A stretch of 64,000 nt of DNA, taken from contig JAHJTE010000001.1 of NCBI GenBank assembly GCA_018830005.1, positions 193,332 to 257,331 on the forward strand, in the 5' to 3' direction. Below the pieces are notes generated by a model. It had not been told where the DNA came from, did not search any database, and saw nothing but the letters and a program-made list of their open reading frames with translations. Of the stretch, positions 36,374-58,549 are shown one piece after another (position 1 is the stretch's first letter; each line of letters starts with the position of its first letter). The translations under genes were made by a program, and so were the position numbers. The stretch is from Candidatus Omnitrophota bacterium (GTDB taxonomy: Bacteria; Omnitrophota; Gorgyraeia; JAHJTE01).

Positions 36374-37456
36374 GTGAAGCCTCATCTCATAAAGACCAAA
36401 GAAAAAGACAATTATATCCAGCAGCTTGAAGCAAAGCTCCTACCCCGCGGCCGTCCGCTTGCCGGGCAGATTGATGTTACATACCGCTGTAATCTAGCCT
36501 GCCAACATTGTTTTATTGTCCCTGAAGAAAACACTGAGGAACTTAAATTTAGCCAAATAATATCTATTATAGATCAGCTCTATGAGGCAGGCTGCCTTTT
36601 TCTTTACTTTAGCGGAGGAGAACCTTTTTTAAGAGAAGATTTTTTGGATATCTATACTTATGCCAGAAACAAAGGCTTTTTAGTCAGCATATTCACAAAC
36701 GGTACTCTTATAAGCGAGGAGATTCTAGATTACTTAGTTAAACTTCCTCCCTATTCTATCGAGATTACATTAAACGGAATAACCCAAGATGTGTATGAAC
36801 AAATAACCCAAGTTAAAGGTTCTTTTTCAAAAGTGATGAAGGCAATAGAGTTGATTAAAGATAAGAATCTGCCTCTTGTTCTTAAATGTAATGGCATGAA
36901 GATAAATTACGATCAGATTTTGAAGATAGAAGAGTTCTCACAAGATTTATTAGGCAAAAAATACTTCCGCTGTAACCTTTCACTTGATCCTGCAATGGAT
37001 GGTTCAAAGAGGCCGTGTGCTCTTAGGCTTAGTCCTGAAGAGACATTAAATATAGTGCATTCTGATGAGGATATGTTTTCACTCTGCCGAGAAGAATTCC
37101 TGCATCACAAAGATAATTCACGCTTAAAAGATGGCTATCTATTTCCTTGCGGCTTGAGTTATTTTAATATTGACGCTTACGGTAAGATGAGACTTTGTTT
37201 ATTTATCAGAGAGGCCTACAGCGACTTGAAGAAAGAAAAATTCTTAAGAGGCTTTGCAAGAATTTATGAAAATCTTTCCGGACTTAAATTCAAGACTAAC
37301 AGCAAATGTCGAAATTGCAATATAAGTTATCTCTGTCGGCAGTGTCCGGGCAGGGCCTTAGCAGAGAATGTTGATATGGAGGCTCCGGTTGAGTTTTTCT
37401 GCGAACTTGCGCATAAAGAGGCGCAGAGGATGGAAGAGGTTTTAGTTAAAAAGTAA
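36374..37456 (+). CDS. Radical SAM/SPASM-domain peptide-modifying enzyme #1 (GTG start)
   Basis: rSAM 'CNLACQHC' (CX3CX2C); 'FSGGEP'; C-terminal SPASM-like 'CGLSYFNIDAYGKMRLC…CRNCNISYLCRQCP'. Confidence 0.8.
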   Translation: MKPHLIKTKEKDNYIQQLEAKLLPRGRPLAGQIDVTYRCNLACQHCFIVPEENTEELKFSQIISIIDQLYEAGCLFLYFSGGEPFLREDFLDIYTYARNKGFLVSIFTNGTLISEEILDYLVKLPPYSIEITLNGITQDVYEQITQVKGSFSKVMKAIELIKDKNLPLVLKCNGMKINYDQILKIEEFSQDLLGKKYFRCNLSLDPAMDGSKRPCALRLSPEETLNIVHSDEDMFSLCREEFLHHKDNSRLKDGYLFPCGLSYFNIDAYGKMRLCLFIREAYSDLKKEKFLRGFARIYENLSGLKFKTNSKCRNCNISYLCRQCPGRALAENVDMEAPVEFFCELAHKEAQRMEEVLVKK

Positions 37457-37479
37457 AAAATTTAAAGGGAGGTGAACAA

Positions 37480-38007
37480 ATGCTTAAGTTAGATGAAGTT
37501 TATGTAAAAGAGCAAGATTCCTGGGTAAGCAGACATATTTTGGATGAGGTAGTGATTATGCCTTTATGTAGAAGCGCTGATGACATGCAGTATATCTATT
37601 CAATTTCCAATGAGACTGGTTCAAGGATTTGGCAGCTTCTGGATGGTGATAATTCGACCTGGGATATCCAGGAGACAATAAAGTCAGAGTATCAAGGTCA
37701 GTTCGAGGTAATAGAGCGAGAAGTGTTGGGATTCTTGAAAGATCTTTCTGAGGCAGGGCTTATTCGCAAGGCCAGAATTAAACCGAAAACCGAAAACCTA
37801 AACCCGAAACCCGAGATAAAAAAGAAACCCTACAAGAGCCCAGAGATTGCCAAGGTAAAGTTACAGCCTGAGCAGGCAGTCTTAAGTTGCTGTACAATCA
37901 ACGGCGGTTATAAAGGAACCACTGTAAATAGATGCGCTGGTCTATGTCCAATTGATGCTTCATGCAACGCATTATCGGATCAATCCCGTGATGCGCTTGC
38001 CACTTAA
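37480..38007 (+). CDS. PqqD/RRE-like domain protein with Lys/Pro-rich linker and Cys-rich C-terminal tail
   Basis: N-terminal PqqD-like 'ISNETGSRIWQLLDGDNSTWDIQETI…EVLGFLKDLSEAGLI'; tail 'AVLSCCTINGGYKGTTVNRCAGLCPIDASCNAL' (5 Cys in 30 aa); SD 'AAAGGGAGGTG'. Confidence 0.65.
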   Translation: MLKLDEVYVKEQDSWVSRHILDEVVIMPLCRSADDMQYIYSISNETGSRIWQLLDGDNSTWDIQETIKSEYQGQFEVIEREVLGFLKDLSEAGLIRKARIKPKTENLNPKPEIKKKPYKSPEIAKVKLQPEQAVLSCCTINGGYKGTTVNRCAGLCPIDASCNALSDQSRDALAT

Positions 38008-38175
38008 ATAGTGCAACTTGATTATACATGTCTATCCGCTGTAGGTACAGATCAATACAGATTAATCCGCCTAGATCAATAAAGAGCTCTTACATCGCCT
38101 TCCTCATCCTAGCATCTATCTGTCGTTGATATAGAATGAGGTTACGGCAGATAGAGACTAATCAGTGAAAGAAAC

Positions 38176-39285
38176 ATGATAAACCAAGGTGATTACGATA
38201 AATTTCAAGCAAGATTAATCAAGAAGGCAAGGAACAAGGCCTTTCCTCTTAAGGCAATGTTTGAACTTACCTATAGGTGTAACCTTAAATGCCGACACTG
38301 CTATGTGTGCGATGGCGAGAATAGAAAAGAATTACAAACCCAGGAGGTCTTTTCTATTCTTGATCAGTTGGCAGAGGCAGGATGTCTAAATTTAGGTTTT
38401 ACAGGAGGAGAGCCTTTCCTGCGAAAGGATATATTTGATATTTTAAGATATGCTAAGAATAAGGGATTTAATACCGTACTTTTGACCAATGCGACTTTGA
38501 TTGAAGAAGCTGATGCAGACAGGTTAAAAGAGTTGGGTCTAAATAAGATTGATGTATCTTTTCATACTAGGAAGCAAGAGGTTTTTGATTGGTTTACTCA
38601 AAGGCCTGGTACATATAAAAGAGTCTCAGAGGCAGTCAGGCTCTTAAGAAAAAAAGGCATTGATGTTTTTCTTAAAACGACTGCAATGACTATAAATAAG
38701 GATGAGATTTTAGCCTTGAGGCATCTTGCAGTAGAGAAATTTGGCGCACATTTTCGCTGGAGTTCGATAATAACTCCAGACCTAGAGGCTAATAAGGAGA
38801 ATTTGAGGTTTCGTTTAACAGCAGAGGATGTTAATTGTCTAGAGAAGCAGATTAGAGATGATAGTGTAATAGAATTTGAAAAACTAGACACCTTGGAAAA
38901 AATAAATAGAAAGTCAGCGAAAAGGCAAAGGCCTATTAGAAAGATAAATCATAACCAGCTGTTTCATTGTGGTGCAGGCAAAACAGAGGTTGTAATAGAC
39001 CCCTATGGCCAGATGAGATTATGTCTGGATATACCATTCCCAAAATACGATATTTTAAAGAGTAATTTCTCCCAAAGCTGGAAGATGTTAACTGATTTTG
39101 TAAGAGATACAGCTGGCGGGTCTAGTTATCAATGTCAAGACTGTGAACTTATTCAATATTGTAAGTCTTGTCCTGCGTATGCATGGCTTGAGTGCGGTGA
39201 CATCAGTGCTTGCCCGCCATATTTTAGAGAGCTGGCGCGTCTGGCAAAGATGGAATCCGAAACAGAGGATATAAAGATTGCATGA
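38176..39285 (+). CDS. Radical SAM/SPASM-domain enzyme #2
   Basis: 'CNLKCRHC'; 'FTGGEP'; SPASM-like 'CGAGKTEVVIDPYGQMRLC…CQDCELIQYCKSCP'. Confidence 0.8.
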   Translation: MINQGDYDKFQARLIKKARNKAFPLKAMFELTYRCNLKCRHCYVCDGENRKELQTQEVFSILDQLAEAGCLNLGFTGGEPFLRKDIFDILRYAKNKGFNTVLLTNATLIEEADADRLKELGLNKIDVSFHTRKQEVFDWFTQRPGTYKRVSEAVRLLRKKGIDVFLKTTAMTINKDEILALRHLAVEKFGAHFRWSSIITPDLEANKENLRFRLTAEDVNCLEKQIRDDSVIEFEKLDTLEKINRKSAKRQRPIRKINHNQLFHCGAGKTEVVIDPYGQMRLCLDIPFPKYDILKSNFSQSWKMLTDFVRDTAGGSSYQCQDCELIQYCKSCPAYAWLECGDISACPPYFRELARLAKMESETEDIKIA

Positions 39286-40193
39286 GGAAAGAACTTAGAT
39301 TAGAAATTGCCGGGATTGGATTTTTATTTCGTTATAATAATTGTCAGATTAAAGAAGGCAGATATAGTCCAGCATACCTTGAGGATTTTATTAAACCGGG
39401 TAATAATAGTGATTTCATTATTGATCTTGACGTGGGATCTCTTCCTGCAATTCCTAGGGGGAGGCTGTTGTTTGAATCAAAGGAGAATTGGCGTTCCTTT
39501 GCGCATAACGGAAGTTTCCTAATCGAGACTTACTATGGTAAGTCAGAGATAACCAGGGTTTGTGTAATAAATAAAGATCTAAGTAAGGCAAAGGTATATA
39601 TCTCACCCTGGACAGACGAATTTGATAAAAAGAAAAGACTTAAAAACAATCCTCCCAAGAACTGGTCACTGGAGACATTTTTTTCTGTTTTAGGCCAGCT
39701 TATTTTAATCAACCTATTACATAAATATCAGGGGCTTCTTTTGCATGCCTGTGGTGTAGTTGTTGATGGTGCGGGATTAGTTTTTCCCGGGATATCAGGC
39801 GCAGGCAAGACGACTCTGACAAGGTTATGGCAGAAGAGGGGTGGCCTTGGCCTATTAAGCGATGATCGGGTAATTATTCGAAAGATAAATAAAGAATATT
39901 TTGTTTCTGGAAGCCCTTGGCCAGGCGAGGCCAGGATTGCCTCTGGTAAATCAGCGCCGCTTAGTAAAATCCTGTTTCTTTCCAAGGCCAATCAAAATAA
40001 ACTCAAAGCCCTAGGAAAAAGAGAAAGTCTATATCTGCTTATGAGGCAGTGTTTTCCTCCTATATGGGATAGACAGGCGATTGATTTTTTTCTTAAGTTT
40101 TGCGCAAGTCTAGTCGAAGATGTCCCCTGTTTTTCATTTGGTTTTGTTCCGGATGAAAGCGCGCTAGATTTTATTTTAAAAAACCACTCATGA
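39282..40193 (+). CDS. HPr kinase C-terminal-domain-like (HprK-related) P-loop protein #1
   Basis: 'LLLHACGVVVDGAGLVFPGISGAGKTTL' and 'LLSDDRVII' resemble HprK/P catalytic core; ATGA overlap with upstream rSAM. Confidence 0.65.
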   Translation: MRKELRLEIAGIGFLFRYNNCQIKEGRYSPAYLEDFIKPGNNSDFIIDLDVGSLPAIPRGRLLFESKENWRSFAHNGSFLIETYYGKSEITRVCVINKDLSKAKVYISPWTDEFDKKKRLKNNPPKNWSLETFFSVLGQLILINLLHKYQGLLLHACGVVVDGAGLVFPGISGAGKTTLTRLWQKRGGLGLLSDDRVIIRKINKEYFVSGSPWPGEARIASGKSAPLSKILFLSKANQNKLKALGKRESLYLLMRQCFPPIWDRQAIDFFLKFCASLVEDVPCFSFGFVPDESALDFILKNHS

Positions 40194-41293
40194 TTAAAGA
40201 GTTAAGATTTAGGAAAGAATTTACAGAAAGGCTGGAGCGAAAGCGCGATAAGATGGATTTTCCCCGCAATGTAATTTTTGAGATTACACATCAATGCAAT
40301 CTGCGTTGTCGGCATTGCTATGTAGTGCCAGATTCCAGAAAAAAAGAATTAACGACTTCGCAGGTTAAATCAGTTTTTAAGCAATTAGTTGATGTAGGTT
40401 GTCTTCATCTGACCTTAACTGGTGGTGAGCCTTTAGTGCGGCCGGATATCATTTCCTTGATTGACTATGCCCGCAGGCTAGGGCTTTTTATCCATCTTTT
40501 TACCAATGCCACCCTTATAAATCTTGAGATTGCTGATAAATTAGGAGAGCTTAGCCTTACATCCTTAGAGATATCTTTTCACAGTCTTAAGCCTAAACGT
40601 TTTGATTCCTTTACTAGAGTGGAAGGTTCTTTTGATTCGGTGATGAAGGCAATCAGGCTTGTTAAAGAGAGAAAAGAAAGCATTGCCTTAAAGATAAACA
40701 TAACCAAGGCAAACCTTGATGAGATTGATGATTTCAAAGAGTTTGCGAATGATTTAGACGCGGTCATTGAATGGGGAACTATTCTTAGACCAAGGAATGA
40801 TGGTTCACAGGATAATCTATCTTTACGTCTTGAGCCAGAAGAGGCATTAAAGCTAGGCTATATGCTTGGTCTTGAATCTATTCTTGATGAGCCAATACAT
40901 AATAATAAAGAATGTCATCCTCCAGAAAATAAACTCACCAAGCCAAATAGAAATAGGATAGAGAGCGAGTTATTTCGTTGTGGGATCGGCAGTGAAGGTT
41001 TAGTTATTGACCCCTACGGAGAATTAAAGCCTTGTCTTGTGCTTGGCCTTTTAGGCTATTCTATTTTTGATAGCAGTCTAAAGCAGGCATGGATAAATTT
41101 AAGAGCTGATTTGAATTCAATGAAACCGACAGCTGATTATAAATGTCTTGATTGTAATCTAGGGCATTATTGTTCATCTTGTCCAGCAAGAGCGAAACTT
41201 GAATGTAATGATATGAACTCATGTCCTGATTATTATCGTCGGCTGGCAGAATTAAGGTGTCAAAATAATGGCTATAAGAATTCAAGAATATAA
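40190..41293 (+). CDS. Radical SAM/SPASM-domain enzyme #3
   Basis: 'CNLRCRHC'; 'LTGGEP'; 'CGIGSEGLVIDPYGELKPC…CLDCNLGHYCSSCP'. Confidence 0.8.
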   Translation: MIKELRFRKEFTERLERKRDKMDFPRNVIFEITHQCNLRCRHCYVVPDSRKKELTTSQVKSVFKQLVDVGCLHLTLTGGEPLVRPDIISLIDYARRLGLFIHLFTNATLINLEIADKLGELSLTSLEISFHSLKPKRFDSFTRVEGSFDSVMKAIRLVKERKESIALKINITKANLDEIDDFKEFANDLDAVIEWGTILRPRNDGSQDNLSLRLEPEEALKLGYMLGLESILDEPIHNNKECHPPENKLTKPNRNRIESELFRCGIGSEGLVIDPYGELKPCLVLGLLGYSIFDSSLKQAWINLRADLNSMKPTADYKCLDCNLGHYCSSCPARAKLECNDMNSCPDYYRRLAELRCQNNGYKNSRI

Positions 41294-42389
41294 GGACTTT
41301 AGCTTGAGGCTTCATGATAAAGGTTCAAGAAAGCCGATTCTGGGACAATTTGAGCTCACCCATAACTGCAATCTTGCTTGTCAGCATTGTTATGTTGTAA
41401 ATGAACCCCAAAGGCAGGAACTTTCTTACAGTGAGCTTTGCCGTATCTTTGATGAAGTTTATGAACAAGGATGTTTCTGGCTCTGTTTTACTGGAGGCGA
41501 GCCCCTGTTGCGGAAAGATTTTCTTGATATTTACTCATATGCCTACAAAAAAGGATTTCTTATTAGTATCTTTACTAATGCGACACTTTTTAATGAGAAT
41601 ATAGCAGGACACCTTAAGGATTTTCCGCCCTTTTGCATTGAGGTAACCTTGAATGGCATTACTAAAAAAACATACGAATTAATTAGCCAAAGGCCGGGTT
41701 CTTTTGAGCTAGCAATGCGCGGCATTGAACTTATCCGAAAGTTTAAGCTCCCCTTAAAGTTAAAATGCCAGATAATGACTTTAAATATAGATGAGATCGA
41801 TTTGATGCGTAAATTTTATGATAAGATGAACATGGCTTTTCTTTGCAGTCTGATAATTAACCCACGCTTAGACGGTTCGACTCAGACCACTTCTTTGCGT
41901 TTGCCGATTGAGAAAATATTGGAACTTAGAAGGCAAAAAGAAGGACTAGCTGAATGTAGTGATTCTTCAAGGGATATCTTAGGTATGTTGATGCTTCCAG
42001 ATAAGAAAGAAGACATTTTTTTAGAGGAAGATTCATCATTTGACGGGGATAATGAATTAAACCTTGCCTCTGATGCGCTGTTTCGTTGTCCAGGAGGAAC
42101 ATGGGCATTCTATGTTAATCCTTATGGTGAACTTTGTTTTTGTAATTCGCTAAGAGAGCCAGCGTGGGATTTGCGCAAGAATTCATTCAAGCAAGGTTTT
42201 TATGAATTTTTTCCAAAGATTCGCTCAGAGAAGTTTAAAACCGATTCTAAATGCCGAGATTGCGATATCAAGTCAGACTGCCTTAGTTGTCCGGCAAGGG
42301 CTTATTTAGAGACAGGTGATAGAGAGGCCCCTTTGCCCTATTATTGTGAGTTGGCTCAAAAAAACAGGAAGAAAGAAATCAGGACTTAA
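41268..42389 (+). CDS. Radical SAM/SPASM-domain enzyme #4
   Basis: 'CNLACQHC'; 'FTGGEP'; 'CPGGTWAFYVNPYGELCFC…CRDCDIKSDCLSCP'. Confidence 0.8.
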   Translation: MAIRIQEYKDFSLRLHDKGSRKPILGQFELTHNCNLACQHCYVVNEPQRQELSYSELCRIFDEVYEQGCFWLCFTGGEPLLRKDFLDIYSYAYKKGFLISIFTNATLFNENIAGHLKDFPPFCIEVTLNGITKKTYELISQRPGSFELAMRGIELIRKFKLPLKLKCQIMTLNIDEIDLMRKFYDKMNMAFLCSLIINPRLDGSTQTTSLRLPIEKILELRRQKEGLAECSDSSRDILGMLMLPDKKEDIFLEEDSSFDGDNELNLASDALFRCPGGTWAFYVNPYGELCFCNSLREPAWDLRKNSFKQGFYEFFPKIRSEKFKTDSKCRDCDIKSDCLSCPARAYLETGDREAPLPYYCELAQKNRKKEIRT

Positions 42390-42398
42390 ATTGTAATT

Positions 42399-44009
42399 AT
42401 GAATAGTAGGCGTTTACGTGTCGGCATAATATCACGAAAGAATTTAGGTTCATTAAACAGCCTAAGCTGTAGGGTGCTTTTTAAAAACGCCTTAAAGATC
42501 GTTGAGAGTAGATTCAATGCGTGCTGTTGCTTCCTGAATAGCTCTACTAACTCAAACAAGAAGGAGATAGCACTTAAGAAGCTTACCTCTTCTTGCGATG
42601 TGATTTTGGAATTAGCTCCAGGGCAAATGTTTGATATAAAGGCCAAATCAATACCTAGAGTCTTTTTTGCACTTGGTTTTATGTCAAATCCTTTCAATCT
42701 CATGGCTAGCTTTAACAGAAAACTCATGACAGCCAATTCCGTTCTTTTCTCATGCAAAGCGGATTTGGAAATGTTTAATAAAATATTTGGCAAGACAGGA
42801 CGCAGTATGGGCTATATTGTGCCTTTCCCTCTAGAAGTTAATGAATTCAAACCACAAAGTGAGCTTGAAAATAAACGCATGCGAGAAAGATTTGGTATTG
42901 GAGGAGATGTCTTTCTTATCTTGTATGCGGGAAGAATTAACGTGCAGAAGAATATACACACATTACTTAAGATATTTAGAGAGGCCATTAAGAGATTTCC
43001 GCAAACAAGACTTTGTATAGCCGGCGAAGAAGACAGGGGTGGCTTTGAAGAGTTTGGTATTAGTAATAATGGATATACCGGCTATATTAGGAGGAAATGC
43101 CTTGAATACGGGATTGCCGATAAAGTAATATTTACTGGAAAATTAAAAAGAGAAGACCTTATATCTTTATATTCAAGTGCTGATGTTTTCATGAATTGTA
43201 CTATCAGCCAGTATGAAAATTTTGGCTATTCCCAGGTTGAGGCTATGGCCTGCGGCACGCCGGTTATTTGTTCGCATTGGGGTGGATTGAAAGATACAGT
43301 TATTCATGGTAAGTGCGGTTATCATATGCCAACCATACTTAGCAATAACGGCGTAAAGGTTGACTGGCAAAGTGGCTTAAGGCAGTTGATAGGTCTCTTA
43401 GAAGATAAGGATAGACTCAAAGAAATGTCAAGACAGGCAAGAGAACACGCAAAGCTAAACTTCTCTTTCGATAGATTTGCTAAGATGTTAGAATTCGTAC
43501 TTTTAGATACAATGAAGCGCAATAATAAGAATAAAAAACACCACTATTTGCTAAAGATTAAAAAAGAAAATCCTCATTTTATGAATTTATTCATGGAGTA
43601 TCTGTATGTAAACCGTAAAAATTACAAGAAGGGGCCGGTCTGTGTGAATAGCCCCAAAAGCCTCTTCTTTAGGCGAAATTATAGTCACTATAAATCTTTT
43701 ATAAAAGCCTACAGTTCTCTATCTGGTTCTGAAATGCTTAAAAGAAATGGCTCCATACCCTACTTTCTACAGGATGTCAGACTTATGTATAAAGGGCAGC
43801 GCCTTTATATCCAAGATCCTCTCTGGCCAGCAAGATACAGATTAGAGGATTGGCAATTTAGAATTGCCTCAGTTATTGATGGCAATAGAAGCCTGGAGGA
43901 TATTAATTCTAATTTTATACACAGGGGTTTTAAAAAAAGGAGAGATTCGCTTAAGAGGTTCTATAAGCATCTTGCTGAAGAGGGCGTAGTATCATTTCTT
44001 AGTAATTAG
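42399..44009 (+). CDS. GT4-family (GT-B) glycosyltransferase with C-terminal PqqD/RRE-like domain
   Basis: GT4 C-domain 'FLILYAGRINVQKNIHTLL…CIAGEED…NFGYSQVEAMACGTPVICSHWGGL'; C-terminal ~70 aa 'RIASVIDGNRSLEDINSNF…SLKRFYKHLAEEGVVSFL' resembles PqqD. Confidence 0.6.
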   Translation: MNSRRLRVGIISRKNLGSLNSLSCRVLFKNALKIVESRFNACCCFLNSSTNSNKKEIALKKLTSSCDVILELAPGQMFDIKAKSIPRVFFALGFMSNPFNLMASFNRKLMTANSVLFSCKADLEMFNKIFGKTGRSMGYIVPFPLEVNEFKPQSELENKRMRERFGIGGDVFLILYAGRINVQKNIHTLLKIFREAIKRFPQTRLCIAGEEDRGGFEEFGISNNGYTGYIRRKCLEYGIADKVIFTGKLKREDLISLYSSADVFMNCTISQYENFGYSQVEAMACGTPVICSHWGGLKDTVIHGKCGYHMPTILSNNGVKVDWQSGLRQLIGLLEDKDRLKEMSRQAREHAKLNFSFDRFAKMLEFVLLDTMKRNNKNKKHHYLLKIKKENPHFMNLFMEYLYVNRKNYKKGPVCVNSPKSLFFRRNYSHYKSFIKAYSSLSGSEMLKRNGSIPYFLQDVRLMYKGQRLYIQDPLWPARYRLEDWQFRIASVIDGNRSLEDINSNFIHRGFKKRRDSLKRFYKHLAEEGVVSFLSN

Positions 44010-44033: not shown

Positions 44034-45113
44034 ATGAGCAGAAAAACTTATTTTGATTTACTTTACAGACTAAAGGATAATATCTTTCCTTTAAGGGCAC
44101 AGATAGCATTAACCTATAGGTGTAACTTAAACTGCGTTCATTGTTTCGAGAATAAGGACAGTCGAGATGAGTTAACCCTTTCAGAAATAAAAGATATATT
44201 AAATCAGCTAAAAGATCTGGGTTGTTTGCGGCTAAATTTTACAGGAGGAGAGTTATTTTTAAGAAAAGATGTATTAGAGATTTTCGAGCTTGCGCGCAGG
44301 ATGAATTTTGACTTTAGCCTAATAACTAACGCTACGCTCCTAACAGAAGGCCTAGTCAGGAATATTAAAAAATTTAATCCTTCAACGATACAGATTAGTC
44401 TCTATGGGGCAACTAAGAAGGTCTATGAATCTATTAGCAATGTTTCTGGCTCTTTTAAGAAAACATTAGATGCAATTTCACTTTTAAAGGTGCATAATCT
44501 AAAATTAAGAATAGCTACAGTTGTAATGCGCCAGAATTTTCACGAAATAAAAATTATAAGACAGATGGCCAGAATTAATAAATGGAATTTGATAACAGAT
44601 TATTGCATATCGCCAGGATATAATGGTTCAAGAGTTCCTTTAAAATGCAGAATGACTCAAAATCAGCTTAAGAAAGCTGTTACTGAACTTAAGTCAGAAG
44701 GCAGGTATTTAAAAAAAATGAACACTATCTCTAAAGAAAGGCTTTTCTGTCTTTTATCTTTTTGTCAGCATGAGTGTTATATTTCAGCACAGGCAGATGT
44801 GTTTCCATCATGTACTTTAAGAATGAAACTAGGCAGCCTAAGAGAAAAATCCTTTGAAGAAATCTGGAGAGATTCCCAAGTTGCCAAGACCTTAAGGGGC
44901 TTGAAAAAAGAGGAGTTATATTGTCTGCGTTGTAGGCTTTTTTTCTACTGTTGTTTTGACAAAGGCATGGCCTGGTTGGAGCATGGAGATTTTAGGCTTC
45001 CAGCAAAAGAGATATGCAGGGTAATGAAGGCAGGAATAAGGAGAGATGGTAAGCTCTTGCCGCCAGGATTAGTGTCAAAGGTTAAATTCCCGTCCACTAT
45101 TTCGTTTTCTTAG
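44034..45113 (+). CDS. Radical SAM/SPASM-domain enzyme #5 (divergent C-terminus)
   Basis: 'CNLNCVHC'; 'FTGGEL'; Cys-rich C-term 'CLLSFCQHECY…FPSC…CLRCRLFFYCCF'. Confidence 0.75.
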   Translation: MSRKTYFDLLYRLKDNIFPLRAQIALTYRCNLNCVHCFENKDSRDELTLSEIKDILNQLKDLGCLRLNFTGGELFLRKDVLEIFELARRMNFDFSLITNATLLTEGLVRNIKKFNPSTIQISLYGATKKVYESISNVSGSFKKTLDAISLLKVHNLKLRIATVVMRQNFHEIKIIRQMARINKWNLITDYCISPGYNGSRVPLKCRMTQNQLKKAVTELKSEGRYLKKMNTISKERLFCLLSFCQHECYISAQADVFPSCTLRMKLGSLREKSFEEIWRDSQVAKTLRGLKKEELYCLRCRLFFYCCFDKGMAWLEHGDFRLPAKEICRVMKAGIRRDGKLLPPGLVSKVKFPSTISFS

Positions 45114-45155
45114 CAAAACGAAACAGGACTATTGGGGGAGATTAAAGGGGGTGTA

Positions 45156-45290
45156 ATGATGAGAAAGGATTCCAAAAAAATTTCAAAGACAAGAAATGCT
45201 AAGGACAAATATGAGAAGCCAAAACTTTTCAAATACAGAATGGTAGATGTTGCCAGTGCTTTAGTAGCTGGACAGATAGAACCTTTATGA
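45156..45290 (+). CDS. Unannotated small ORF, 44 aa: MMRKDSKKISKTRNAKDKYEKPKLFKYRMVDVASALVAGQIEPL; candidate precursor peptide
   Basis: Not in the six-frame track (<60 aa). Strong SD 'AAAGGGGG' at 45145-45152; tandem ATGs at 45156 and 45159; lies in the 284-nt gap between rSAM #5 and the stand-alone PqqD gene; Lys-rich N-terminal half, hydrophobic small-residue C-terminal half. Confidence 0.45.
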   Translation: MMRKDSKKISKTRNAKDKYEKPKLFKYRMVDVASALVAGQIEPL

Positions 45291-45408
45291 ATAGAGCAGA
45301 TGTTTGCTTGATATCCTATGGCTTGAATTAGTTTTTCTAATGGGTAGATTATATATTTACTGAAGGAAAAATCTATCTGTTAACTAATAAATAAACTTGG
45401 AGGTAGAT

Positions 45409-45699
45409 ATGGCCTTAAGGGAAGGATGCAATCGTTTTAAAATCCAGAAGGATAAAATTGCCCACCGCTTAATTAATAATGAAGTGGTAATTTTGCATTT
45501 AGAGCGTGGTCTTTATTTCAGTCTTAATAAAACCGCTACTTTTATCTGGAAACTTATAGAGCAAGGCAGGGATTTAGGCCAGATGTCAGAGGCGTTCGCT
45601 AAAAGGTTTGAATGCAAAGAGGCAGAGGCAATAAAGGATGTCAATGTCTTAATAGGCGATTTAGAAAAAGAAGGACTCATAGATAAGATTAAGAAATAA
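45409..45699 (+). CDS. Stand-alone PqqD-family (RRE) protein; start at ATG 45409 with GGAGG at 45399-45403 (track ORF starts at an upstream TTG)
   Basis: 96 aa; 'INNEVVILHLERGLYFSLNKTATFIWKLIEQGRDLGQM…KDVNVLIGDLEKEGLI' typical PqqD. Confidence 0.75.
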   Translation: MALREGCNRFKIQKDKIAHRLINNEVVILHLERGLYFSLNKTATFIWKLIEQGRDLGQMSEAFAKRFECKEAEAIKDVNVLIGDLEKEGLIDKIKK

Positions 45700-49325: not shown

Positions 49326-50427
49326 CCCCTTTGATTATACAATAGGCTTAAAGATAAAAAATATAGAGGCGGCCTTAAGGGATAGGGAATTTCAAAATAG
49401 CACCTGTGAATCTTTCCCTGCATCTTTAACCATTGCAGATACTACAAGATGTAATCTAGACTGTATAATGTGTCATCACCATTTGGCCAAGACATATACA
49501 AAGTCTGCAAGCAATATTAATATGGATTTTAATCTATTTTCGAAGATTGCCAAAGAGACATTTCCCCATATTAACCTTGTTAGTTTAAGTGTATCTGGAG
49601 AACCTTTCATTAATCCAAATTTTTCTAAAGAGTTAGAGTTAATCGCTTTCCACAAGGTTAAGTTAGGTATTATTACTAACGCCACACTCATGCCAAAAGG
49701 CGATAGCCTAAGGAGACTTGTTAATAATCTCTCTAGTATAATTGTTTCTATTGATGCTGCTAGCAAGAAAACTTACGAGGCTATAAGAAAAGGCGCTAGA
49801 TTCCAACAGGTTATCGATAACGTCAAGCGGCTTAATAGGGCAAGACTAAAATTCAGTAAAAGTTTTAGACCCAAGCTTATCTTCTGGCTAGTTTTGATGA
49901 GGAAAAATATTGAAGAGTTATCAGAATATGTGCGCTTAGCTCATGCTCTTAAGGCAGACGGGATAGGACTGGTCCACATGTCAATACATCATGAGAAATT
50001 AAAAAAAGAATCATTGATTTACCACAAGCGATTGACGAATCGCTGCTTAAAGGCAGCAAGAAAGCTAATAGATAGTTTTGGCATTGAAGTCTATAATATT
50101 GCACCTTTGTTTTCTTTTGGTAGGACACCCATTAAAAAGAGCTATTATACTTTAAACAAGAGACCTTGTAAATTTCCTTGGCGGGAGGCATTTATTGAAG
50201 TAAATGGTGATGTTTATCCTTGTTGTGCTCCGGACAAAAGTGGTTTATTGATGGGTAATGTTAGAGAGCAGACGTTTAGACAGATTTGGAATGGCAGGCG
50301 CTATCGATTATTGCGAACCAGCTTTAAAAACGGCAATCTATTTGCTCCTTGCAAGAACTGTTACCAAAGATTAAAAGATTATACCTCAGATATCAGCGGT
50401 ATCTATTTCCCGCCGCCTATTGCATGA
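49315..50427 (+). CDS. Radical SAM/SPASM-domain enzyme #7 (paralog of #6, ~55-60% aa identity)
   Basis: Same 'TTRCNLDCIMC' block; 'VSGEPF'; 'CKFPWREAFIEVNGDVYPCCAP…CKNCYQRL'. Confidence 0.75.
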   Translation: MKIDPFDYTIGLKIKNIEAALRDREFQNSTCESFPASLTIADTTRCNLDCIMCHHHLAKTYTKSASNINMDFNLFSKIAKETFPHINLVSLSVSGEPFINPNFSKELELIAFHKVKLGIITNATLMPKGDSLRRLVNNLSSIIVSIDAASKKTYEAIRKGARFQQVIDNVKRLNRARLKFSKSFRPKLIFWLVLMRKNIEELSEYVRLAHALKADGIGLVHMSIHHEKLKKESLIYHKRLTNRCLKAARKLIDSFGIEVYNIAPLFSFGRTPIKKSYYTLNKRPCKFPWREAFIEVNGDVYPCCAPDKSGLLMGNVREQTFRQIWNGRRYRLLRTSFKNGNLFAPCKNCYQRLKDYTSDISGIYFPPPIA

Positions 50428-52205
50428 AAATGTCAGAACAAATCCACAAAGAACAAGTCGCTAAAGACCTCCTTTATGAATCTATAAAAGATGGCAGGAA
50501 GCGATCTCTAAAGGTAATAGGTAGTTGTATGCATCCAGTGATACAGCCAGGGGATGAAGTATTTTTTGGAAAAAGAGAGAAGTTTAGATTCGGTGATTTA
50601 GTGGTTTACAGGCAAAGTCAGGGCTTTATTGTCCATAGGTTTATTAGAAAGGCAAAGGTTAATAACAAACTAGTTTTTATATTAAAGGCAGATAATCCCT
50701 CTGAACTTGAGGAATTCATCGGGCAGGATGAGATTATCGGCGTAGTTACTAAACTGAGACGTAACGGCAGGATTTTAATTATTGATACATTTGCAGGCAG
50801 ACTTACGAGTTTATTTTATTTCTGTCTGGCTAATTTAAATCTTGCTCAAAGTAGGCTAAAACAAAGGCATGAGCTCTTAGCTATTAAGGCACTGCCTGCT
50901 AGATTAAAGAGTATAATTTCTACTAAAGTCTTCAACCTAAAAGACGTTTTTGCCTTTGGGATAGTAGAGACTGAGCAAGATTCATTTTTGAAAGAAAGGA
51001 AGACATTAAAACTAGTCGCTAAAGATTCGCTTTGTAAGGATGAGGAAACGCAATTAATAGATTTATTGAAAAATGGCCTTGATTGGCAATACGTCCTAGA
51101 GAGAATTAAATGGAATTTTATCATACCTTTTTATATTCAAAAGCTAAAGAGTTTCGGCTGGGAGGAAGATTTATATAGAAGGAATCACTGTTTAGATTTA
51201 GAGAATATCCATAGACTTCAGCTTATACAGGATACAAAAACTAGGCTTATTCTAGACGGGGTATTAGGGGAATTTAATAAACATGGTATTAAGGTGCTCG
51301 TACTTAAAGGAGCTCATTTAGGAATAGAGGTTTATGAGGACAGTTCCCAGCGCTGGATGGGAGATATTGATTTAATCTTGAGAATAGAAGATTGGTCTAA
51401 GGCATGCAAGATCTTAAATGATTTGGGTTTTGTGCTTGATTGGTTTTGTAAAGACTATAATATTTGGAGCATAAGATATCTAGATAATCATATTGACTTT
51501 CGCAAGCAAGGTATAAAATTAGAATTAAAAACAGGCATTTGGGCCATAGATTTTCCTTATTTCAATTATAGTCTTTGGCAAGATGCCAGATTAAAGAGGA
51601 TAGGAAAAGCAGATATATATTTTCCTTCCTATGAGGATACTCTTCTGATAGCCTGCGTTAATCTCGTTCGCCATAATTTCTCAGGATTAATCTGGTTCCT
51701 GGACACAAAAAAGATCGTTGATAAATTTAAAGACTCATTAGATTGGGATGTATTTTTAGATAAAGTCTCTAGATACGATTTAGGAACCGCAGTTTATTAC
51801 GGACTTTATTTAACTGATAAGTTATTTTCTTTAACATTACCCCCTGATTTGTTAGCTAAATTTAAGCCGCCTAGATTGGTGGATAAATTATTCAATTTCT
51901 TCTGGGATAGGAAAGCGATATTACTTGAAAAGGAAGGCCTTGTATTTAAGAACAAGGTGCCTTTTGAGTGCGCTTTTGTTTTATTCTGCGGCAAGTTTAG
52001 TTTTAGGCCTGAAAAATTTGTAAGATATGTAGTATATTTATTAAAGCTGATTTTTCCTCCCCAAGACTTTATCAGAGATAAATACAAGATTAAAGTCAAT
52101 CTAGTTAGCCTATCAAGATGTTATTTAGTTAGATTGTTTAGTTTTTTATCTACGTTGTTTAGTTTGCTCTTTGACTTATTTGCGGATAAAGACAGGCGAG
52201 CCTAA
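50424..52205 (+). CDS. Two-domain protein: N-terminal S24/S26 (LexA/signal-peptidase-like) Ser-Lys peptidase domain + C-terminal nucleotidyltransferase-family domain (PF14907-like); start at ATG 50424 (ATGA overlap with rSAM #7 stop)
   Basis: 'VIGSCMHPVIQPGDEVFF…GDLVVYRQSQGFIVHRFIRK' resembles the S26/S24 Ser…Lys fold; C-term 'LKGAHLGIEVYEDSSQRWMGDIDLILRIEDW' typical of the uncharacterised NTase family. Confidence 0.55.
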   Translation: MKMSEQIHKEQVAKDLLYESIKDGRKRSLKVIGSCMHPVIQPGDEVFFGKREKFRFGDLVVYRQSQGFIVHRFIRKAKVNNKLVFILKADNPSELEEFIGQDEIIGVVTKLRRNGRILIIDTFAGRLTSLFYFCLANLNLAQSRLKQRHELLAIKALPARLKSIISTKVFNLKDVFAFGIVETEQDSFLKERKTLKLVAKDSLCKDEETQLIDLLKNGLDWQYVLERIKWNFIIPFYIQKLKSFGWEEDLYRRNHCLDLENIHRLQLIQDTKTRLILDGVLGEFNKHGIKVLVLKGAHLGIEVYEDSSQRWMGDIDLILRIEDWSKACKILNDLGFVLDWFCKDYNIWSIRYLDNHIDFRKQGIKLELKTGIWAIDFPYFNYSLWQDARLKRIGKADIYFPSYEDTLLIACVNLVRHNFSGLIWFLDTKKIVDKFKDSLDWDVFLDKVSRYDLGTAVYYGLYLTDKLFSLTLPPDLLAKFKPPRLVDKLFNFFWDRKAILLEKEGLVFKNKVPFECAFVLFCGKFSFRPEKFVRYVVYLLKLIFPPQDFIRDKYKIKVNLVSLSRCYLVRLFSFLSTLFSLLFDLFADKDRRA

Positions 52206-52206: not shown

Positions 52207-53127
52207 TTATAGCAATTTGCCTAGAAGCCTGGGGATTTCTCTAATCTGATCTAGGCTATAAGAAAGGGCATAGGATCTTGCCTGGTAGGCGAGTCGACAG
52301 AGATTCTGTATTTGGTGTTGGCGGATAATTATGTTTTTTTCCTCAGGAAGACTATTTACCTTATCATAGGCTAAAATAGTAAAACTTTCTTTTGTCTTCA
52401 ACTTTTTTAATTCAGGCGGCCGCAGGGGATTGTCAGATTGACAAATGAATAGTATTACGCCTAAGCATGCGCGTTCAGCCGGCTTAGCCGGGAAATACTC
52501 TTGTGCATAAAAAGAGGTAGCAATTTTTCTTCCTTCATTTAATGTAAGGAATTTTAGAGATTGTTTATCTAATTTCATTTTAAGAGGAAAGGAGAGTATT
52601 CTATCTTCGTGCAGGATAGCAAATTCATCTGAAAGAAAATTATAACCTTTATCTATAAGGGCTGCGGCTAAGGTGCTTTTGCCCATACCGGGACCGCCAC
52701 AGATAAGCAGGGCCTTATTCTTTTTAGATACTACTGCCGAATGTATTAAGGATATATTGTGATATGCCAATATTCGCCGTAAGGGCGAGATTATTGTTAA
52801 GTGCAGCAGGTTTTCTATTGTTAAACTGGAGGGGTAGAGCAGCTTGGCGTTGATTTTATTCTCTTTGGGATTGGCCTCAAGCGATATATTTTTTATCCAA
52901 CAATCAAGAGAAAAGTTCTCATCTTTTAGGCCAGCAACGTCAGAACGCCCATTTTTAAACGCCTTATTTTTAACAGAGAGATTTAGATCAATTTCTATAT
53001 ATTTGTTATAACTGCGGAATTTTGGAAATTTCAGTTCTTCGCAAAAGGCGTTAAACAGAGATTGGCAGTCAGACTTAAAATTTAATTTGATGTTATGTAG
53101 ATATATATTTTTTGAATAGGTTTGCAT
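52207..53127 (-). CDS. HprK-related P-loop kinase-like protein #2
   Basis: 'IHSAVVSKKNKALLICGGPGMGKSTLAAALIDKGYNFLSDEFAIL' parallels HprK/P C-domain; 306 aa. Confidence 0.6.
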   Translation of the reverse strand: MQTYSKNIYLHNIKLNFKSDCQSLFNAFCEELKFPKFRSYNKYIEIDLNLSVKNKAFKNGRSDVAGLKDENFSLDCWIKNISLEANPKENKINAKLLYPSSLTIENLLHLTIISPLRRILAYHNISLIHSAVVSKKNKALLICGGPGMGKSTLAAALIDKGYNFLSDEFAILHEDRILSFPLKMKLDKQSLKFLTLNEGRKIATSFYAQEYFPAKPAERACLGVILFICQSDNPLRPPELKKLKTKESFTILAYDKVNSLPEEKNIIIRQHQIQNLCRLAYQARSYALSYSLDQIREIPRLLGKLL

Positions 53128-53513: not shown

Positions 53514-55286
53514 ATGTTTGATTCAGGCATAAACCAAGACAGGCTTAAATTAAAAGATGTAAAAGAAGGATTTAGGTTTTTTCTTCGTTTCAATAAATAT
53601 ATATTACGTTACTGGAAGATACAGCTGCCCATTCTGATTATAGGAAATGCAACAATGATGCTGGGTCTTGTTAATCCTTATATCGGGAAATTGATATTGG
53701 ATAAGGGCATCCTCGCCAGAAATTTTAATGTATTTATTCTCTTTACCATTATCTCTGTAACGATCTTTTTCATTTCTATTCTTTCAAACATTGCCTATGA
53801 TTATTTGAAAAATTATGCACTGGTTAATATTTCTATTGATCTTAATCGGGATGTATTTAGGAGGCTAAAAAAATATTCCTTGAGCCAATTGCAGATGAGC
53901 TCAACCGGTGTGCGTATCTTTCGTATAGTCAATGATATCGGCAATGCCTCCGAGGTTATCAATGTTACACTTGTACACATTATAAATTCAATTATTAAGA
54001 TGATTTTTATAACCGCTATCATAATATTTATTAACCCTCTTTTTTTGTTGATTATTATTGTTTATCAGTTTTTGGTTATTATCAGGATGAGATTTTTTGT
54101 TAAGTCTTTTGAGGAATTGAAAAAGATGAAGTTAAAAGCCGTTGAGAGGCTTTTTCATAGTCTTAATAATTTCTTCTCACATCTTTATCTTAGTAAGACC
54201 TTCGGCACCATGGGTAGGGAGATAGGAAGGTATATGCATAGCTTCTTTGAGCATATAAGGTTGCACATGAGAGGCGTACGTTTGGGGGCGATTGCTGGAT
54301 TTATATCCAGCATTTCTGATAAATTCTTCTTTGGGGCCTTAGCTTTTTACGGAGCATATCTTGTGATAAAGGGCGAGATAACCTTGGGCACAATGGGTGC
54401 GATGCTTGCCTATATTAGTCAGGGAGTAGGGGCATATACAGAGCTTACTAGTTTGTGCGAAAAACTGGTGTTTAACAAGATTTCTTTAGAGAGGGTAGCA
54501 AAGGTATTGGATGAACCACTTCCTGAAAATCTTCCTCAGAGAGGTGGAGTTAGGCCGCAAGATTTAAGGAGGATTGAATTTAGGCAGGTGAGTTTTGGAT
54601 ATCAAGCCAATAAAGAAATAATAAAAGGTTTAAATTTTAGTATCGAGGCTGGGTCTCATATTGGCCTGGTTGGCCATTCTGGTTGCGGCAAGACAACGCT
54701 GCTTAGCCTTATTTTAGGGCTTTATCCTGTTGAGAACGGTAAGATATTATTGGCTGATAGCCAGCTAGAGGCAATAGATTCTGCCTATCTTCTTTACAAT
54801 ATTGGCATAGTTTTGCAGGAGCCGTTTCTTTTTGATGACACTATCGCTTATAATATTTCCTATGCCTTAAATGAGGCTAGAGATAAAGATATTATTGAAG
54901 CAGCGAGGCTTTCTGATATCTATAGTTTCGTTAATTCTCTGCCTAAAAAATTTGATACAACTGTGGGAGAGAATGCCTACAGGCTTTCTCAAGGCCAAAA
55001 GCAGCGGATTGCTATCGCGCGTGCATTAATAAAAAGGCCGCAAATTTTAATTTTAGATGAAGCGATGTCTTCTCTTGATTCAGAAACAGAAAGCAAGATA
55101 ATCGCTAATATAAAAAACAAATTTTCCGATTCTACGATTATCTTGGTATCGCATAGATTGTCAGCTGTAAAGACAATGGATACAATTTATTATTTTAAAG
55201 GGCCGCATATTATGCACATAGGCTCGCATGATAAATTACTTGATGAGCTCTCTGATTATAGAGAATTCTTTAGAGAACAGATTTAA
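53514..55286 (+). CDS. ABC transporter, fused permease/ATPase exporter (no C39 peptidase domain)
   Basis: 6-TM N-domain; Walker A 'GHSGCGKTTL', signature 'LSQGQKQRIAIARAL', Walker B 'ILILDEA'. Confidence 0.85.
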   Translation: MFDSGINQDRLKLKDVKEGFRFFLRFNKYILRYWKIQLPILIIGNATMMLGLVNPYIGKLILDKGILARNFNVFILFTIISVTIFFISILSNIAYDYLKNYALVNISIDLNRDVFRRLKKYSLSQLQMSSTGVRIFRIVNDIGNASEVINVTLVHIINSIIKMIFITAIIIFINPLFLLIIIVYQFLVIIRMRFFVKSFEELKKMKLKAVERLFHSLNNFFSHLYLSKTFGTMGREIGRYMHSFFEHIRLHMRGVRLGAIAGFISSISDKFFFGALAFYGAYLVIKGEITLGTMGAMLAYISQGVGAYTELTSLCEKLVFNKISLERVAKVLDEPLPENLPQRGGVRPQDLRRIEFRQVSFGYQANKEIIKGLNFSIEAGSHIGLVGHSGCGKTTLLSLILGLYPVENGKILLADSQLEAIDSAYLLYNIGIVLQEPFLFDDTIAYNISYALNEARDKDIIEAARLSDIYSFVNSLPKKFDTTVGENAYRLSQGQKQRIAIARALIKRPQILILDEAMSSLDSETESKIIANIKNKFSDSTIILVSHRLSAVKTMDTIYYFKGPHIMHIGSHDKLLDELSDYREFFREQI

Positions 55287-55304: not shown

Positions 55305-56102
55305 ATGAAAATACGCTTATACATCGGATTATTACTTTTGAAAATTACCGAAACGTTCAATCTCATGGGCAGGATATTTAAAAATATTTTACTAGTAGTT
55401 CTCCTGCCTCAGGATCTAAGCAGCCTTAATAAATTAGCTTATAATAATAAGGGTAATCTAAATGCGCTCTCAAGTTTGGCAACGCGAGGGCTAAATGAAG
55501 GAGAGAAGGAATTAATTTCTAAATATTGTCTTAAGCCGGGTAAGTTTCTAGTCTTAGGCTGCGGTGCAGGCAGGGAAACTTATGCATTGGCAAAGATGGG
55601 TTTTGTTGTTACGGGTATTGATTTCGTAGAGACCTTGTTAGGAAAGGCAAGAGCTGTAGCAGAAGAAGAACAGTTGAGGATAGAATACATTAATAAAGAT
55701 ATTCTTTTATGGGCCGAGGAAGAGAGAAAAGAAAAATACGATTATATCCTTGTTTCAAATAATGTCTATCTGCAGATTCCTTCAAAAAAAATACGGATTA
55801 ATTTTCTTAATAGGGCGCTTAATAAATTATCTGATGATGGCCTTTTTATTGTAATTAATAACTGCATATCTGATCTTAAATACTCTAAAATTCAGTTTAA
55901 ATTAAAAAGGCTCTTGGCAAGAATCATGTTCGCAAATGTCGGAATAGAAGCAGGCGACTGGATACCAATTCGTCAATTCTTTCACCGGCCGCAAAATAAG
56001 AATGAATTTTTAACTGAATTTCAAGATAGCGAAGCCTTAATCTATGAGGTTAGAGAAGATAAGAATCTTATTTCGGTTTTGCTAAAACATTCAAATGGAT
56101 AA
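55305..56102 (+). CDS. Class I SAM-dependent methyltransferase
   Basis: Motif I 'FLVLGCGAGRETYAL', motif II 'YDYILVSNNV'. Confidence 0.7.
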   Translation: MKIRLYIGLLLLKITETFNLMGRIFKNILLVVLLPQDLSSLNKLAYNNKGNLNALSSLATRGLNEGEKELISKYCLKPGKFLVLGCGAGRETYALAKMGFVVTGIDFVETLLGKARAVAEEEQLRIEYINKDILLWAEEERKEKYDYILVSNNVYLQIPSKKIRINFLNRALNKLSDDGLFIVINNCISDLKYSKIQFKLKRLLARIMFANVGIEAGDWIPIRQFFHRPQNKNEFLTEFQDSEALIYEVREDKNLISVLLKHSNG

Positions 56103-58500: not shown

Positions 58501-58549
58501 AGTGTAAGTATATTCAGGCCATTGAATATAAGTGAGGCTAGGAGCGCTA

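Follow-up and report, generated by a model that had tools for sequence, protein, structure and literature searches.

A conserved small open reading frame in a multi-radical-SAM gene cluster of an Omnitrophota bacterium probably encodes a RiPP-type precursor with a lasso-type leader motif

Uncharacterized families of peptides synthesized ribosomally and modified after translation (RiPPs) that depend on radical S-adenosylmethionine (rSAM) enzymes are numerous, and large rSAM clusters from uncultured phyla typically remain classed as "RRE-containing, substrate unknown," RRE standing for RiPP recognition element. Lasso peptides have cores of about 15 to 24 residues that start with Gly, Ala, Ser or Cys and carry Asp or Glu at positions 7 to 9, with Thr (rarely Ile or Val) at position -2. 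Leaders of lasso peptides are recognized through a YxxPxL motif at positions -17 to -12, which is bound by the B1/RRE protein (PMC6784204; PMC10368454). HPr-kinase homologues phosphorylate lasso precursors and an NTP_transf-type enzyme, sometimes fused to the leader protease, glycosylates the phosphate (PMC8498205). Here, we investigated a stretch of 64,000 nucleotides from a Candidatus Omnitrophota metagenome-assembled genome (MAG), called the window below, in which an open reading frame (ORF) of 44 codons plus stop at 45156..45290 of the + strand lies between an rSAM/SPASM gene (44034-45113, stop included) and the gene of a 96-amino-acid (aa) PqqD-family protein (ATG at 45409). We estimate at roughly 0.8 the probability that this ORF encodes a RiPP-type precursor recognized by the adjacent RRE. 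An earlier sequence-only reading had proposed the ORF as a candidate precursor peptide, and this proposal is supported by a conserved leader, a variable tail, tandem gene copies and the link to the RRE.

The leader is where the locus comes close to lasso systems. As in the precursors of lasso systems with split B1 and B2 proteins (paeninodin, pseudomycoidin and the Bsf cluster), the predicted leader is Lys rich and carries YxxPxL. The codons of this motif, Y19-E-K-P-K-L24, occupy 45210..45227 (+). The motif is invariant in 16 sequences and is a presumed docking site for the RRE. The motif is included in a conserved block, K-Y-x-K-P-x-L-x-K-Y, and the YQKPKL stretch of a homologous peptide from another contig (L006; contigs and loci outside the window are designated by L numbers) gave a faint match (E=0.07) to NF033528 (lasso_cyano), a cyanobacterial lasso precursor model. 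Moreover, the neighboring 96-aa protein (45409..45699, +; Pfam PqqD, E=1.8e-17) is a stand-alone PqqD-family RRE that resembles lasso B1 proteins and, again as in the split-B1/B2 systems, is nearest to TbiB1 and TfuB1. Indeed, comparison of a profile of six PqqD orthologues (A3) with the PDB gave matches to TbiB1 (5v1u; E=8e-13), 9x90_B (E=1e-9), TfuB1 (E=1.6e-7) and 9x8z_B (E=1.4e-6), whereas genuine PqqD matched far more weakly than these lasso RREs (E=0.03-0.7 only). The best NCBIfam matches of the 96-aa protein were lasso_PqqD_Strm/Bac (NF033530 and NF033536), with scores below the lasso B1 cut-offs (43.0 bits versus 70, and 38.9 versus 80). We infer from these similarities that the protein acts as a leader-binding chaperone. 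The N-terminal half of the peptide had been described as leader-like, a view that gains from both the docking motif and the lasso-type affinity of the neighboring PqqD protein.

The locus also shares with decorated lasso clusters an HPr-kinase homologue, an NTP_transf_5-type nucleotidyltransferase (here fused to a peptidase) and an ABC exporter. Unlike in lasso systems, however, no cyclase or B2 protein was found in the scanned ORFs, the peptidase is signal-peptidase-like (S24/S26), and the locus encodes several rSAM/SPASM enzymes together with GT4/GT2 glycosyltransferases. The C-terminal part of the peptide is also too short for a lasso core, and it has neither the Asp/Glu acceptor nor Thr at -2. 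Similarities were also observed with RRE-dependent rSAM/SPASM RiPPs (sactipeptides, ranthipeptides, streptide-type RaS-RiPPs, tryglysin/WgkB, PQQ and mycofactocin), in which a small precursor gene likewise stands beside genes for a SPASM rSAM enzyme and a PqqD-type element, and in which a conserved leader, a variable core and multicopy precursors recur. The differences concern the core, which lacks the Cys thioether donors of sactipeptides and ranthipeptides, the conserved aromatic/Lys/Arg motif of crosslinked rSAM RiPPs and the invariant C-terminal residues of PqqA and MftA. The precursor family is most likely an uncharacterized one, whose novelty would consist in a lasso-type leader/RRE pair in an RRE-dependent rSAM RiPP without lasso cyclization.

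The ORF begins with ATG ATG (45156-45161), ends with a TGA stop (45288-45290) and encodes the peptide MMRKDSKKISKTRNAKDKYEKPKLFKYRMVDVASALVAGQIEPL. It is preceded by the Shine-Dalgarno (SD) sequence AAAGGGGG (45144..45151, +), at a spacing of 4 nucleotides (nt) to the first ATG and 7 nt to the second, the local sequence reading ...ATTAAAGGGGGTGTA ATG ATG AGA AAG.... Use of the alternative start at 45159 would give a product of 43 aa, and since the homologues described below begin with MRK or MKK, this second ATG may be the real start. The SD sequence, the double ATG and the stop were thus read at the positions that the sequence-only reading had given; its remark that the N-terminal half is basic and that Cys is absent was equally borne out (Lys/Arg-rich half, zero Cys). 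Its gap of 284 nt, in contrast, had to be corrected: the spacer from the rSAM/SPASM stop to the PqqD ATG, which is itself preceded by GGAGG at 45399-45403, measures 295 nt, and about 284 nt are obtained only by counting to an in-frame TTG at 45397. The ORF had also been called unannotated. This holds for the NCBI annotation of the MAG carrying MBU2540520/21 (the same locus), in which the ORF was skipped, but not for other annotations, since one NCBI Omnitrophota MAG has the exact 44-aa product as MFH1493071.1 ("hypothetical protein ABIE81_07050"), and versions of 43 aa (second ATG) and 52 aa (TTG) were called in other pipelines (ENA and JGI). Of the two NCBI MAG annotations of the organism, one therefore omitted the ORF. 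Of 5000 versions of the gap shuffled with preservation of dinucleotides, 5.3% contained an ORF of at least 43 codons starting with ATG on the + strand, and 0.6% did so when an SD-like site was also required. The ORF alone is thus mildly unusual and constitutes weak evidence; its status as a gene is decided by conservation in related loci.

When the 44-aa peptide alone served as the query, a word-indexed search for homologues matched only the peptide itself. Homologues were reached through syntenic loci of the neighboring rSAM enzyme, followed by profile searches and further contexts. This approach uncovered 16 distinct homologous small ORFs, in 17 gene copies at 11 loci from Omnitrophota and other metagenomes. 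Relatives of the rSAM enzyme with 49-56% identity were found on four contigs with identical gene order (L003-L006), and each of them carries a small + strand ORF just 5' of the PqqD gene, with an obvious common motif. The encoded peptides are MRKEKKSNQETRGIKEKYQKPKLLRYKMKEAVLSGSVP in L003 (where a second copy ends with ...KMKSIILSGSVP), MKKDRKNCKEVRKSPEKYEKPKLIKYKLLDIAVGGNVT in L004, MKKKSKRDSKSNNTKEKYFKPHLYKYNMIDVVSGFVPSAAQIAPESGGG in L005 and MKMKKDFRKASKPKDMKETYQKPKLVKYKTLSGGSVTGPSVQTDA in L006. A homologous ORF occupies the same position in L008, and more distant loci with family members are L007, L041, L127, L128 and L130. Several loci harbor tandem paralogues with a common leader and a divergent tail (two each in L003, L007 and L130, and three in L041). 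The two copies in L007 are followed by HPrK-like, ABC and NTP_transf_5 genes, and the three copies in L041 (269-364, 448-555 and 573-674) have near-identical leaders and differing tails. In L128, an rSAM/SPASM-plus-peptide unit is duplicated, and its two peptide genes (3005-3145 and 4823-4963) are identical, including 25 nt upstream. The family thus shows what is expected of RiPP precursors: a gene with its own ribosome-binding site that is codirectional with, and adjoins, the genes of the maturase and the RRE (also in L003-L006 and L008), together with a conserved leader, a variable core and paralogous copies (L003, L007, L041, L128 and L130).

In the family alignment (A6), Y19, K21, P22 and L24 were invariant across the 16 distinct sequences, and K/T23, K/R26 and Y/H27 were nearly so. 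The invariant residues are encoded by varied codons (TAT/TAC, CCA/CCT/CCC, CTT/TTG/TTA). Differences by codon position amounted to 0.29/0.26/0.53, and 143 of the 319 codon pairs specifying identical residues used different codons. An ATG start was present in 16 of 16 copies and an SD-like site in 14 of 16 (+ strand); in the syntenic loci, a ATTAAAGG(A/G)GG element equivalent to the SD sequence of the window precedes the ATG. The sequence-only reading had considered that the ORF might turn out to lack conservation as a peptide or translation signals, or that a structured RNA such as an attenuator might be predicted in its place. Instead, the peptide is conserved at the protein level, its Y-x-K-P-x-L being invariant although the codons change synonymously, and it has the start signals of a translated gene. 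The 295-nt gap showed no excess of RNA structure (fold z = 0.13) and had no Rfam match, terminator or promoter, so that a structured RNA, terminator or promoter reading of the gap was rejected. Taken together, these data make it nearly certain that the ORF is a real protein-coding gene.

Searches beyond the syntenic loci added little. No family match for the peptide was obtained in Pfam or NCBIfam, and no description of the peptide family was found in the open-access literature. Scanning genome contigs with the rSAM protein returned two distant loci only (29-30% identity). A metagenome search with the peptide alignment gave 55 pattern stretches, none of which passed tblastn, for which the query was too short. 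A degenerate DNA pattern scan of metagenomes gave 118 stretches, nearly all of them chance or unrelated, with L041 as the only clear new member. Matches of the peptide profile in the PDB were to designer PPR repeat proteins and were rejected as spurious, being sums of weak repeat matches.

Related leader motifs were also noted elsewhere. Three unrelated metagenome contigs carry - strand small ORFs beginning with MKKTYEKPKLTKYGQLKDIT... (L057, ~6457-6645), MKDYQKPKLTKYGELRSVT... (L094, ~175-405) and MKYEKPKLMKYG... (L099, ~5023-5277), in which a similar YxKPKLxKYG leader precedes quite different cores, one of them Cys rich. Other small ORFs, with [Y/W]xxPx[I/V] motifs, were observed in L001 (5250-5393), L129 (523-660) and L131 (11013-11156); their sequences include MKKPYKKPEIKK..., ...KNWVNPKIKG... 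and MKRKRKKYQKPEVV..., respectively, and their tails mostly contain Cys. These three loci carry related PqqD and rSAM/SPASM genes (about 30-42% identity for rSAM/SPASM). Since related rSAM and PqqD proteins are paired there with other [Y/W]xxPx[I/V] peptides, the recognition module appears to be broader than this peptide family.

The C-terminal region of the peptide, M29-L44 (MVDVASALVAGQIEPL; 45240..45287, +), is its variable part and would comprise the core with the modification sites, the boundary between leader and core being a predicted one. It contains a semiconserved [A/S/G]-G-x-[V/I/L] motif, and both its length and its sequence vary from locus to locus as well as among tandem paralogues. 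The C-termini differ from member to member (IEPL, SVP, NVT, QLA, GGG, TDA, PGT and EIE). Cys is absent from the tails of all family members and occurs in the leaders of L004, L007b and L130 only. When the peptides are placed in the lasso register (Y at -17), the window peptide would have a 9-aa core, LVAGQIEPL, preceded by Ser at -2, and three members would have cores of 4 residues (GSVP, GNVT and GQLA); most of these cores lack a ring acceptor, and Thr at -2 is missing in this register. From the absence of Cys, the sequence-only reading had deduced C-C/C-N/C-O crosslinking, epimerization or methylation, which is a reasonable but speculative guess. The chemistry is not derivable from a tail without Cys or an invariant residue and from rSAM enzymes that score far below maturase cut-offs.

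The ORF lies in the middle of a gene run of ~25 kb that is nearly all on the + strand, with housekeeping genes upstream of the cluster and polysaccharide-export genes downstream. The candidate maturase is encoded directly upstream, by the rSAM/SPASM gene at 44034..45113 (+), named rSAM #5 in the sequence-only reading. Its product has a Radical_SAM domain at residues 26-175 plus SPASM and no N-terminal RRE. Its orthologues in L003-L006 (49-56% identity) are encoded directly 5' of the peptide gene or with one GNAT gene in between, and its distant relatives in L128 and L130 (39-42% identity) are likewise found 5' of the peptide gene. In fact, all rSAM domains of the cluster begin at residues 26-43, leaving no room for a fused RRE in any of these enzymes, and all rSAM enzymes score far below the cut-offs of every curated NCBIfam maturase family. 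Further partners conserved across loci besides the RRE-less rSAM/SPASM enzyme are GNAT, glycosyltransferase, HPrK-like and ABC exporter proteins and a signal-peptidase-like/NTP_transf_5 fusion. In L003, L004 and L008, GNAT is encoded by a stand-alone gene immediately 5' of the peptide gene, whereas in the window it is part of a fusion.

On the 3' side of the PqqD gene follow candidate tailoring enzymes, all on the + strand: GT4 (45777-46982), rSAM/SPASM (46986-48122), GT4 (48144-49325) and rSAM/SPASM (49315-50427), an order also found in L004, L005 and L006. They are followed by a fusion of a signal-peptidase-I-like (S24/S26) domain with NTP_transf_5 (50349..52205, +; Pfam Peptidase_S24 and NTP_transf_5; sigpep_I_arch, E=1.4e-9), which is a candidate for both a leader peptidase and a (phospho)glycosyl-type transferase and is conserved in L004, L006 and L128. 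With its annotated TTG start, this gene has a 78-nt overlap with the preceding one, and the start is possibly too early. A second signal-peptidase-like protein, fused to GNAT and NTP_transf_5, is encoded at 56095..58347 (+). In the peptidase domain, the His (VHRF) and the Asp (KADN) are invariant; the nucleophile position of GxSMxP is occupied by Ser in the homologues (L004, L006 and L128) and by Cys in both window copies, which may therefore represent a Ser-to-Cys nucleophile swap. An HPr-kinase-like P-loop protein, the second of the cluster, is encoded at 52207..53127 (-); its closest family is HprK-related kinase A (61 bits versus a cut-off of 200), and it has counterparts in L004, L006, L007, L128 and L130. 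The ABC protein encoded at 53514..55286 (+) combines permease and ATPase, lacks a C39 peptidase domain (it covers positions 127-692 only of the HlyB-type profile) and is a candidate exporter of the product. A methyltransferase gene follows at 55305-56102 (+). Just upstream of the second HPrK-like gene, a 113-aa ORF without a family match (53093-53434, -) gave an end-to-end but weak alignment with the PqqD profile (hhalign probability 6%, E=0.006) and may encode a third, very divergent RRE. Directly 3' of the cluster, genes on the + strand (58532-63541) encode an ATPase of the AAA_22 type, a protein with an HD domain, a polysaccharide export protein of the Wza type and a protein resembling Wzz/tyrosine kinases; in L131, an AAA_22 protein and an HD_5 protein likewise flank a ScmC-PqqD-rSAM unit. 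Two of the loci with family members, L128 (693-1961) and L130 (1406-2674 and 2664-3929), additionally encode fusions of GT2 with a PqqD domain. Such fusions imply a putative leader-guided, and thus leader-dependent, glycosylation of the peptide in these loci.

The upstream half of the cluster has a different candidate substrate. It is preceded by a B12-binding rSAM gene (33403-34737, -) and a gene for a GDSL-like protein (34954-36234, +) and comprises, all on the + strand, genes for an rSAM enzyme (36374-37456), a 175-aa PqqD protein with a fused Cys-rich peptide tail (37480-38007), an rSAM enzyme (38176-39285), an HPr-kinase-like protein (39282-40193), two rSAM enzymes (40190-41293 and 41268-42389) and a GT4 of 536 aa (42399-44009). 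In the 175-aa protein, an RRE (residues ~1-100) is fused in frame to the Cys-rich tail ...KKKPYKSPEIAKVKLQPEQAVLSCCTINGGYKGTTVNRCAGLCPIDASCNALS..., which aligns with free-standing small genes beside rSAM genes in L004 (2603-2797, 64 aa) and L001 (5250-5393, 47 aa), with the invariant pattern KP..PEI....L.PE.A...C. The fusion is present in independent assemblies and is also kept in frame in a 96%-identical variant (MFH1492434.1) whose differences concentrate in the tail. The cluster thus probably encodes two precursors, the second of which would be translationally fused to its own RRE, and the upstream half (36374..44009) probably serves this Cys-rich substrate. Given the second candidate substrate, which the sequence-only reading had missed, the 44-aa peptide need not be a substrate of all seven rSAM enzymes: the four upstream rSAM enzymes may serve the Cys-rich substrate, and the 44-aa peptide may use the downstream set.

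Two further described systems resemble parts of the cluster. As in the SynChlorMet (ScmC/D/E/F) and HprK-related kinase A systems (Haft), an HPrK-like protein and a PqqD-like protein are found together with at least 2 PqqE-like rSAM/SPASM enzymes, and Pfam ScmC (PF27840) matches the HPrK-like proteins of L003, L128 and L131. Unlike for members of these systems, however, the scores remain low (61-74 bits versus 200 for HprK_rel_A, 26 versus 100 for ScmD and about 80-100 versus 400 for ScmE), consistent with the notion that the proteins of the window and of the related loci are relatives and not members. Nothing on SynChlorMet or HprK-related kinase was found in the open-access literature. The TIGR04157 glycosyltransferase/TIGR04148 rSAM maturase system of Bacteroidota, which acts with GG-motif peptides, similarly places a GT4 beside an rSAM maturase and a small precursor, and TIGR04157 was the best match of the 536-aa GT4 (104 bits versus a cut-off of 400). 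The peptide described here differs from it in having no match to the GG-type target family, as do the phylum and the leader.

Several observations weigh against the precursor reading. The C-terminal part has zero invariant residues and the L008 member carries no Ser or Thr there, so that no single modification site can be named, and the cores of only 4-9 residues that several members would have in the lasso register are unusually short. The family is rare: a comparison with 1.84 billion representatives yielded only six proteins at E<1e-3, including a spurious 1700-aa match (P0088), probably of the same kind as the PPR repeat matches. Its conservation was established from about 11 loci, most of which belong to a single phylum. 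Curated NCBIfam cut-offs are reached by none of the PqqD, HPrK-like and rSAM proteins, and no characterized system can be assigned. Finally, dN/dS over the motif block was similar in the sense (0.22) and antisense (0.30) frames. This last point bears on the possibility that the ORF arose by chance within a spacer with a regulatory role (as an attenuator, processing site or promoter), or that the real feature is a 40-codon antisense ORF (45110-45232, -), which overlaps the peptide gene and shares wobble positions with it. ORFs of such length do arise in 5% of the gap shuffles, and antisense frames are similarly open in most homologous loci. Since codon-position and dN/dS tests cannot separate frames that share wobble positions, we used the start-codon/SD test instead: against ATG in all copies and SD in most of them on the + strand, the antisense frame had SD in 0 of 16 and a start that was absent or variable. 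The open antisense frames are thus a by-product of the Lys-rich coding sequence, and the strand assignment rests on the start/SD test, the operon orientation and the motif. Moreover, the peptide is conserved with synonymous changes although the flanking enzymes are only ~50% identical, and the gap shows neither excess RNA structure nor an Rfam match, terminator or promoter. The chance-frame or antisense explanation is effectively refuted and is the least probable of those considered.

A real gene need not encode a substrate, as conservation proves selection on the protein and not its modification. The peptide could be a genuine small protein of another kind, with a regulatory, immunity or scaffold/adaptor role, that binds PqqD or the enzymes unmodified, and the variable C-terminal part would fit such a role. 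However, tandem genes with a common leader and divergent tails are typical of substrates and not of adaptors, YxxPxL is a known RRE-docking motif, and the RRE-fused glycosyltransferases of L128 and L130 need a leader-bearing substrate, for which the peptide is the sole candidate found in these regions (12.8 and 7.5 kb). We thus regard a nonsubstrate role as unlikely, although it is the foremost of the alternatives. About half as probable is a scaffold for a small-molecule cofactor, like PqqA or MftA/mycofactocin, of which one or two C-terminal residues would be converted, excised and glycosylated. The mycofactocin pathway comprises a peptide, a PqqD-type chaperone, an rSAM/SPASM enzyme, a peptidase and a glycosyltransferase, a set with an evident parallel here, and the upstream rSAM enzyme has MftC and PqqE among its better NCBIfam matches (99 bits each), yet every score stays far below the cut-offs of the MftC and PqqE models. 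Cofactor precursors also keep an invariant C-terminal motif, with the conversion-site residues E-x3-Y in PqqA or a C-terminal VY in MftA, whereas the C-termini differ here in every member, even between paralogues within a locus. A true lasso precursor, with genes for the cyclase and the B2 protease located elsewhere, appears still more improbable. The YxxPxL motif, the B1-like RRE and the HPrK-like and NTP_transf_5 genes, which recall phosphorylated and glycosylated lasso clusters, are in its favor, as is the Gly that three members of 38 aa (L003, L004 and L008; A6) have 17 residues downstream of the Tyr. Nevertheless, no Asn-synthetase-like cyclase or transglutaminase-like B2 was found in the scanned ORFs of the window (about ten ORFs of 250-350 aa and smaller ones, within the housekeeping region at 1-29 kb, were unscanned) or among the genes tabulated for L003-L008, L128 and L130. 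In addition, cores of 4-9 residues are too short for a macrolactam of 7-9 residues plus a tail, most of them lack an Asp/Glu acceptor, Thr is missing at -2, and the PqqD protein stays at 43 bits against the cut-off of 70 of the lasso PqqD model. On the grounds of the absent cyclase and B2 in the scanned ORFs, the short cores and the missing Thr(-2), the lasso peptide was rejected as a candidate.

Under the preferred reading, a precursor recognized by the adjacent RRE, the Lys-rich N-terminal ~28 residues would be the leader, and YxxPxL would dock as a beta-strand on the RRE encoded at 45409-45699. The RRE would then present the C-terminal part, which is short (about 4-20 residues) and variable, to enzymes without an RRE of their own: the rSAM/SPASM enzyme encoded directly upstream, probably the two downstream ones, the GT4s, GNAT, the HPr-kinase-like enzyme and the NTP_transf_5 transferase. 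The leader could be removed by the signal-peptidase-like domain fused to NTP_transf_5, possibly near [A/S/G]-G-x-[V/I/L], and the product could be exported by the C39-less ABC transporter. Each step after recognition by the RRE is less certain than the precursor reading. The product would probably be a short, rSAM-modified, glycosylated (possibly phospho-glycosylated) peptide. Going further, we propose tentatively, at slightly less than even odds, that the locus represents a new RiPP class, so far limited to Omnitrophota and a few other uncultured lineages. In this class, a lasso-type leader/B1-RRE pair would be uncoupled from cyclization and would hand on a very short core, of about 4-20 residues, to several rSAM/SPASM enzymes, to glycosyltransferases that depend on an RRE, to an HPr-kinase-like enzyme and to a signal-peptidase-like/nucleotidyltransferase fusion, giving a heavily decorated (glyco- or phospho-glyco-), rSAM-modified mini-peptide, and a second, Cys-rich substrate would be fused to its own RRE.

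With this assignment, a substrate gene with a docking motif is now proposed for a cluster of seven rSAM/SPASM enzymes and a nearby B12-dependent one, which makes an orphan multi-rSAM pathway directly testable. A search for K-Y-x-K-P-x-[LIV] in small ORFs beside PqqD genes could recover further precursors that were skipped by gene callers. To our knowledge, the combination of a kinase and a nucleotidyltransferase as a tailoring set has so far been known from lasso clusters only. Here, it would accompany a lasso-type recognition module (YxxPxL plus B1) that is used outside lasso biosynthesis, and the finding may thus bear on how RiPP pathways evolve through the exchange of recognition and catalytic modules.

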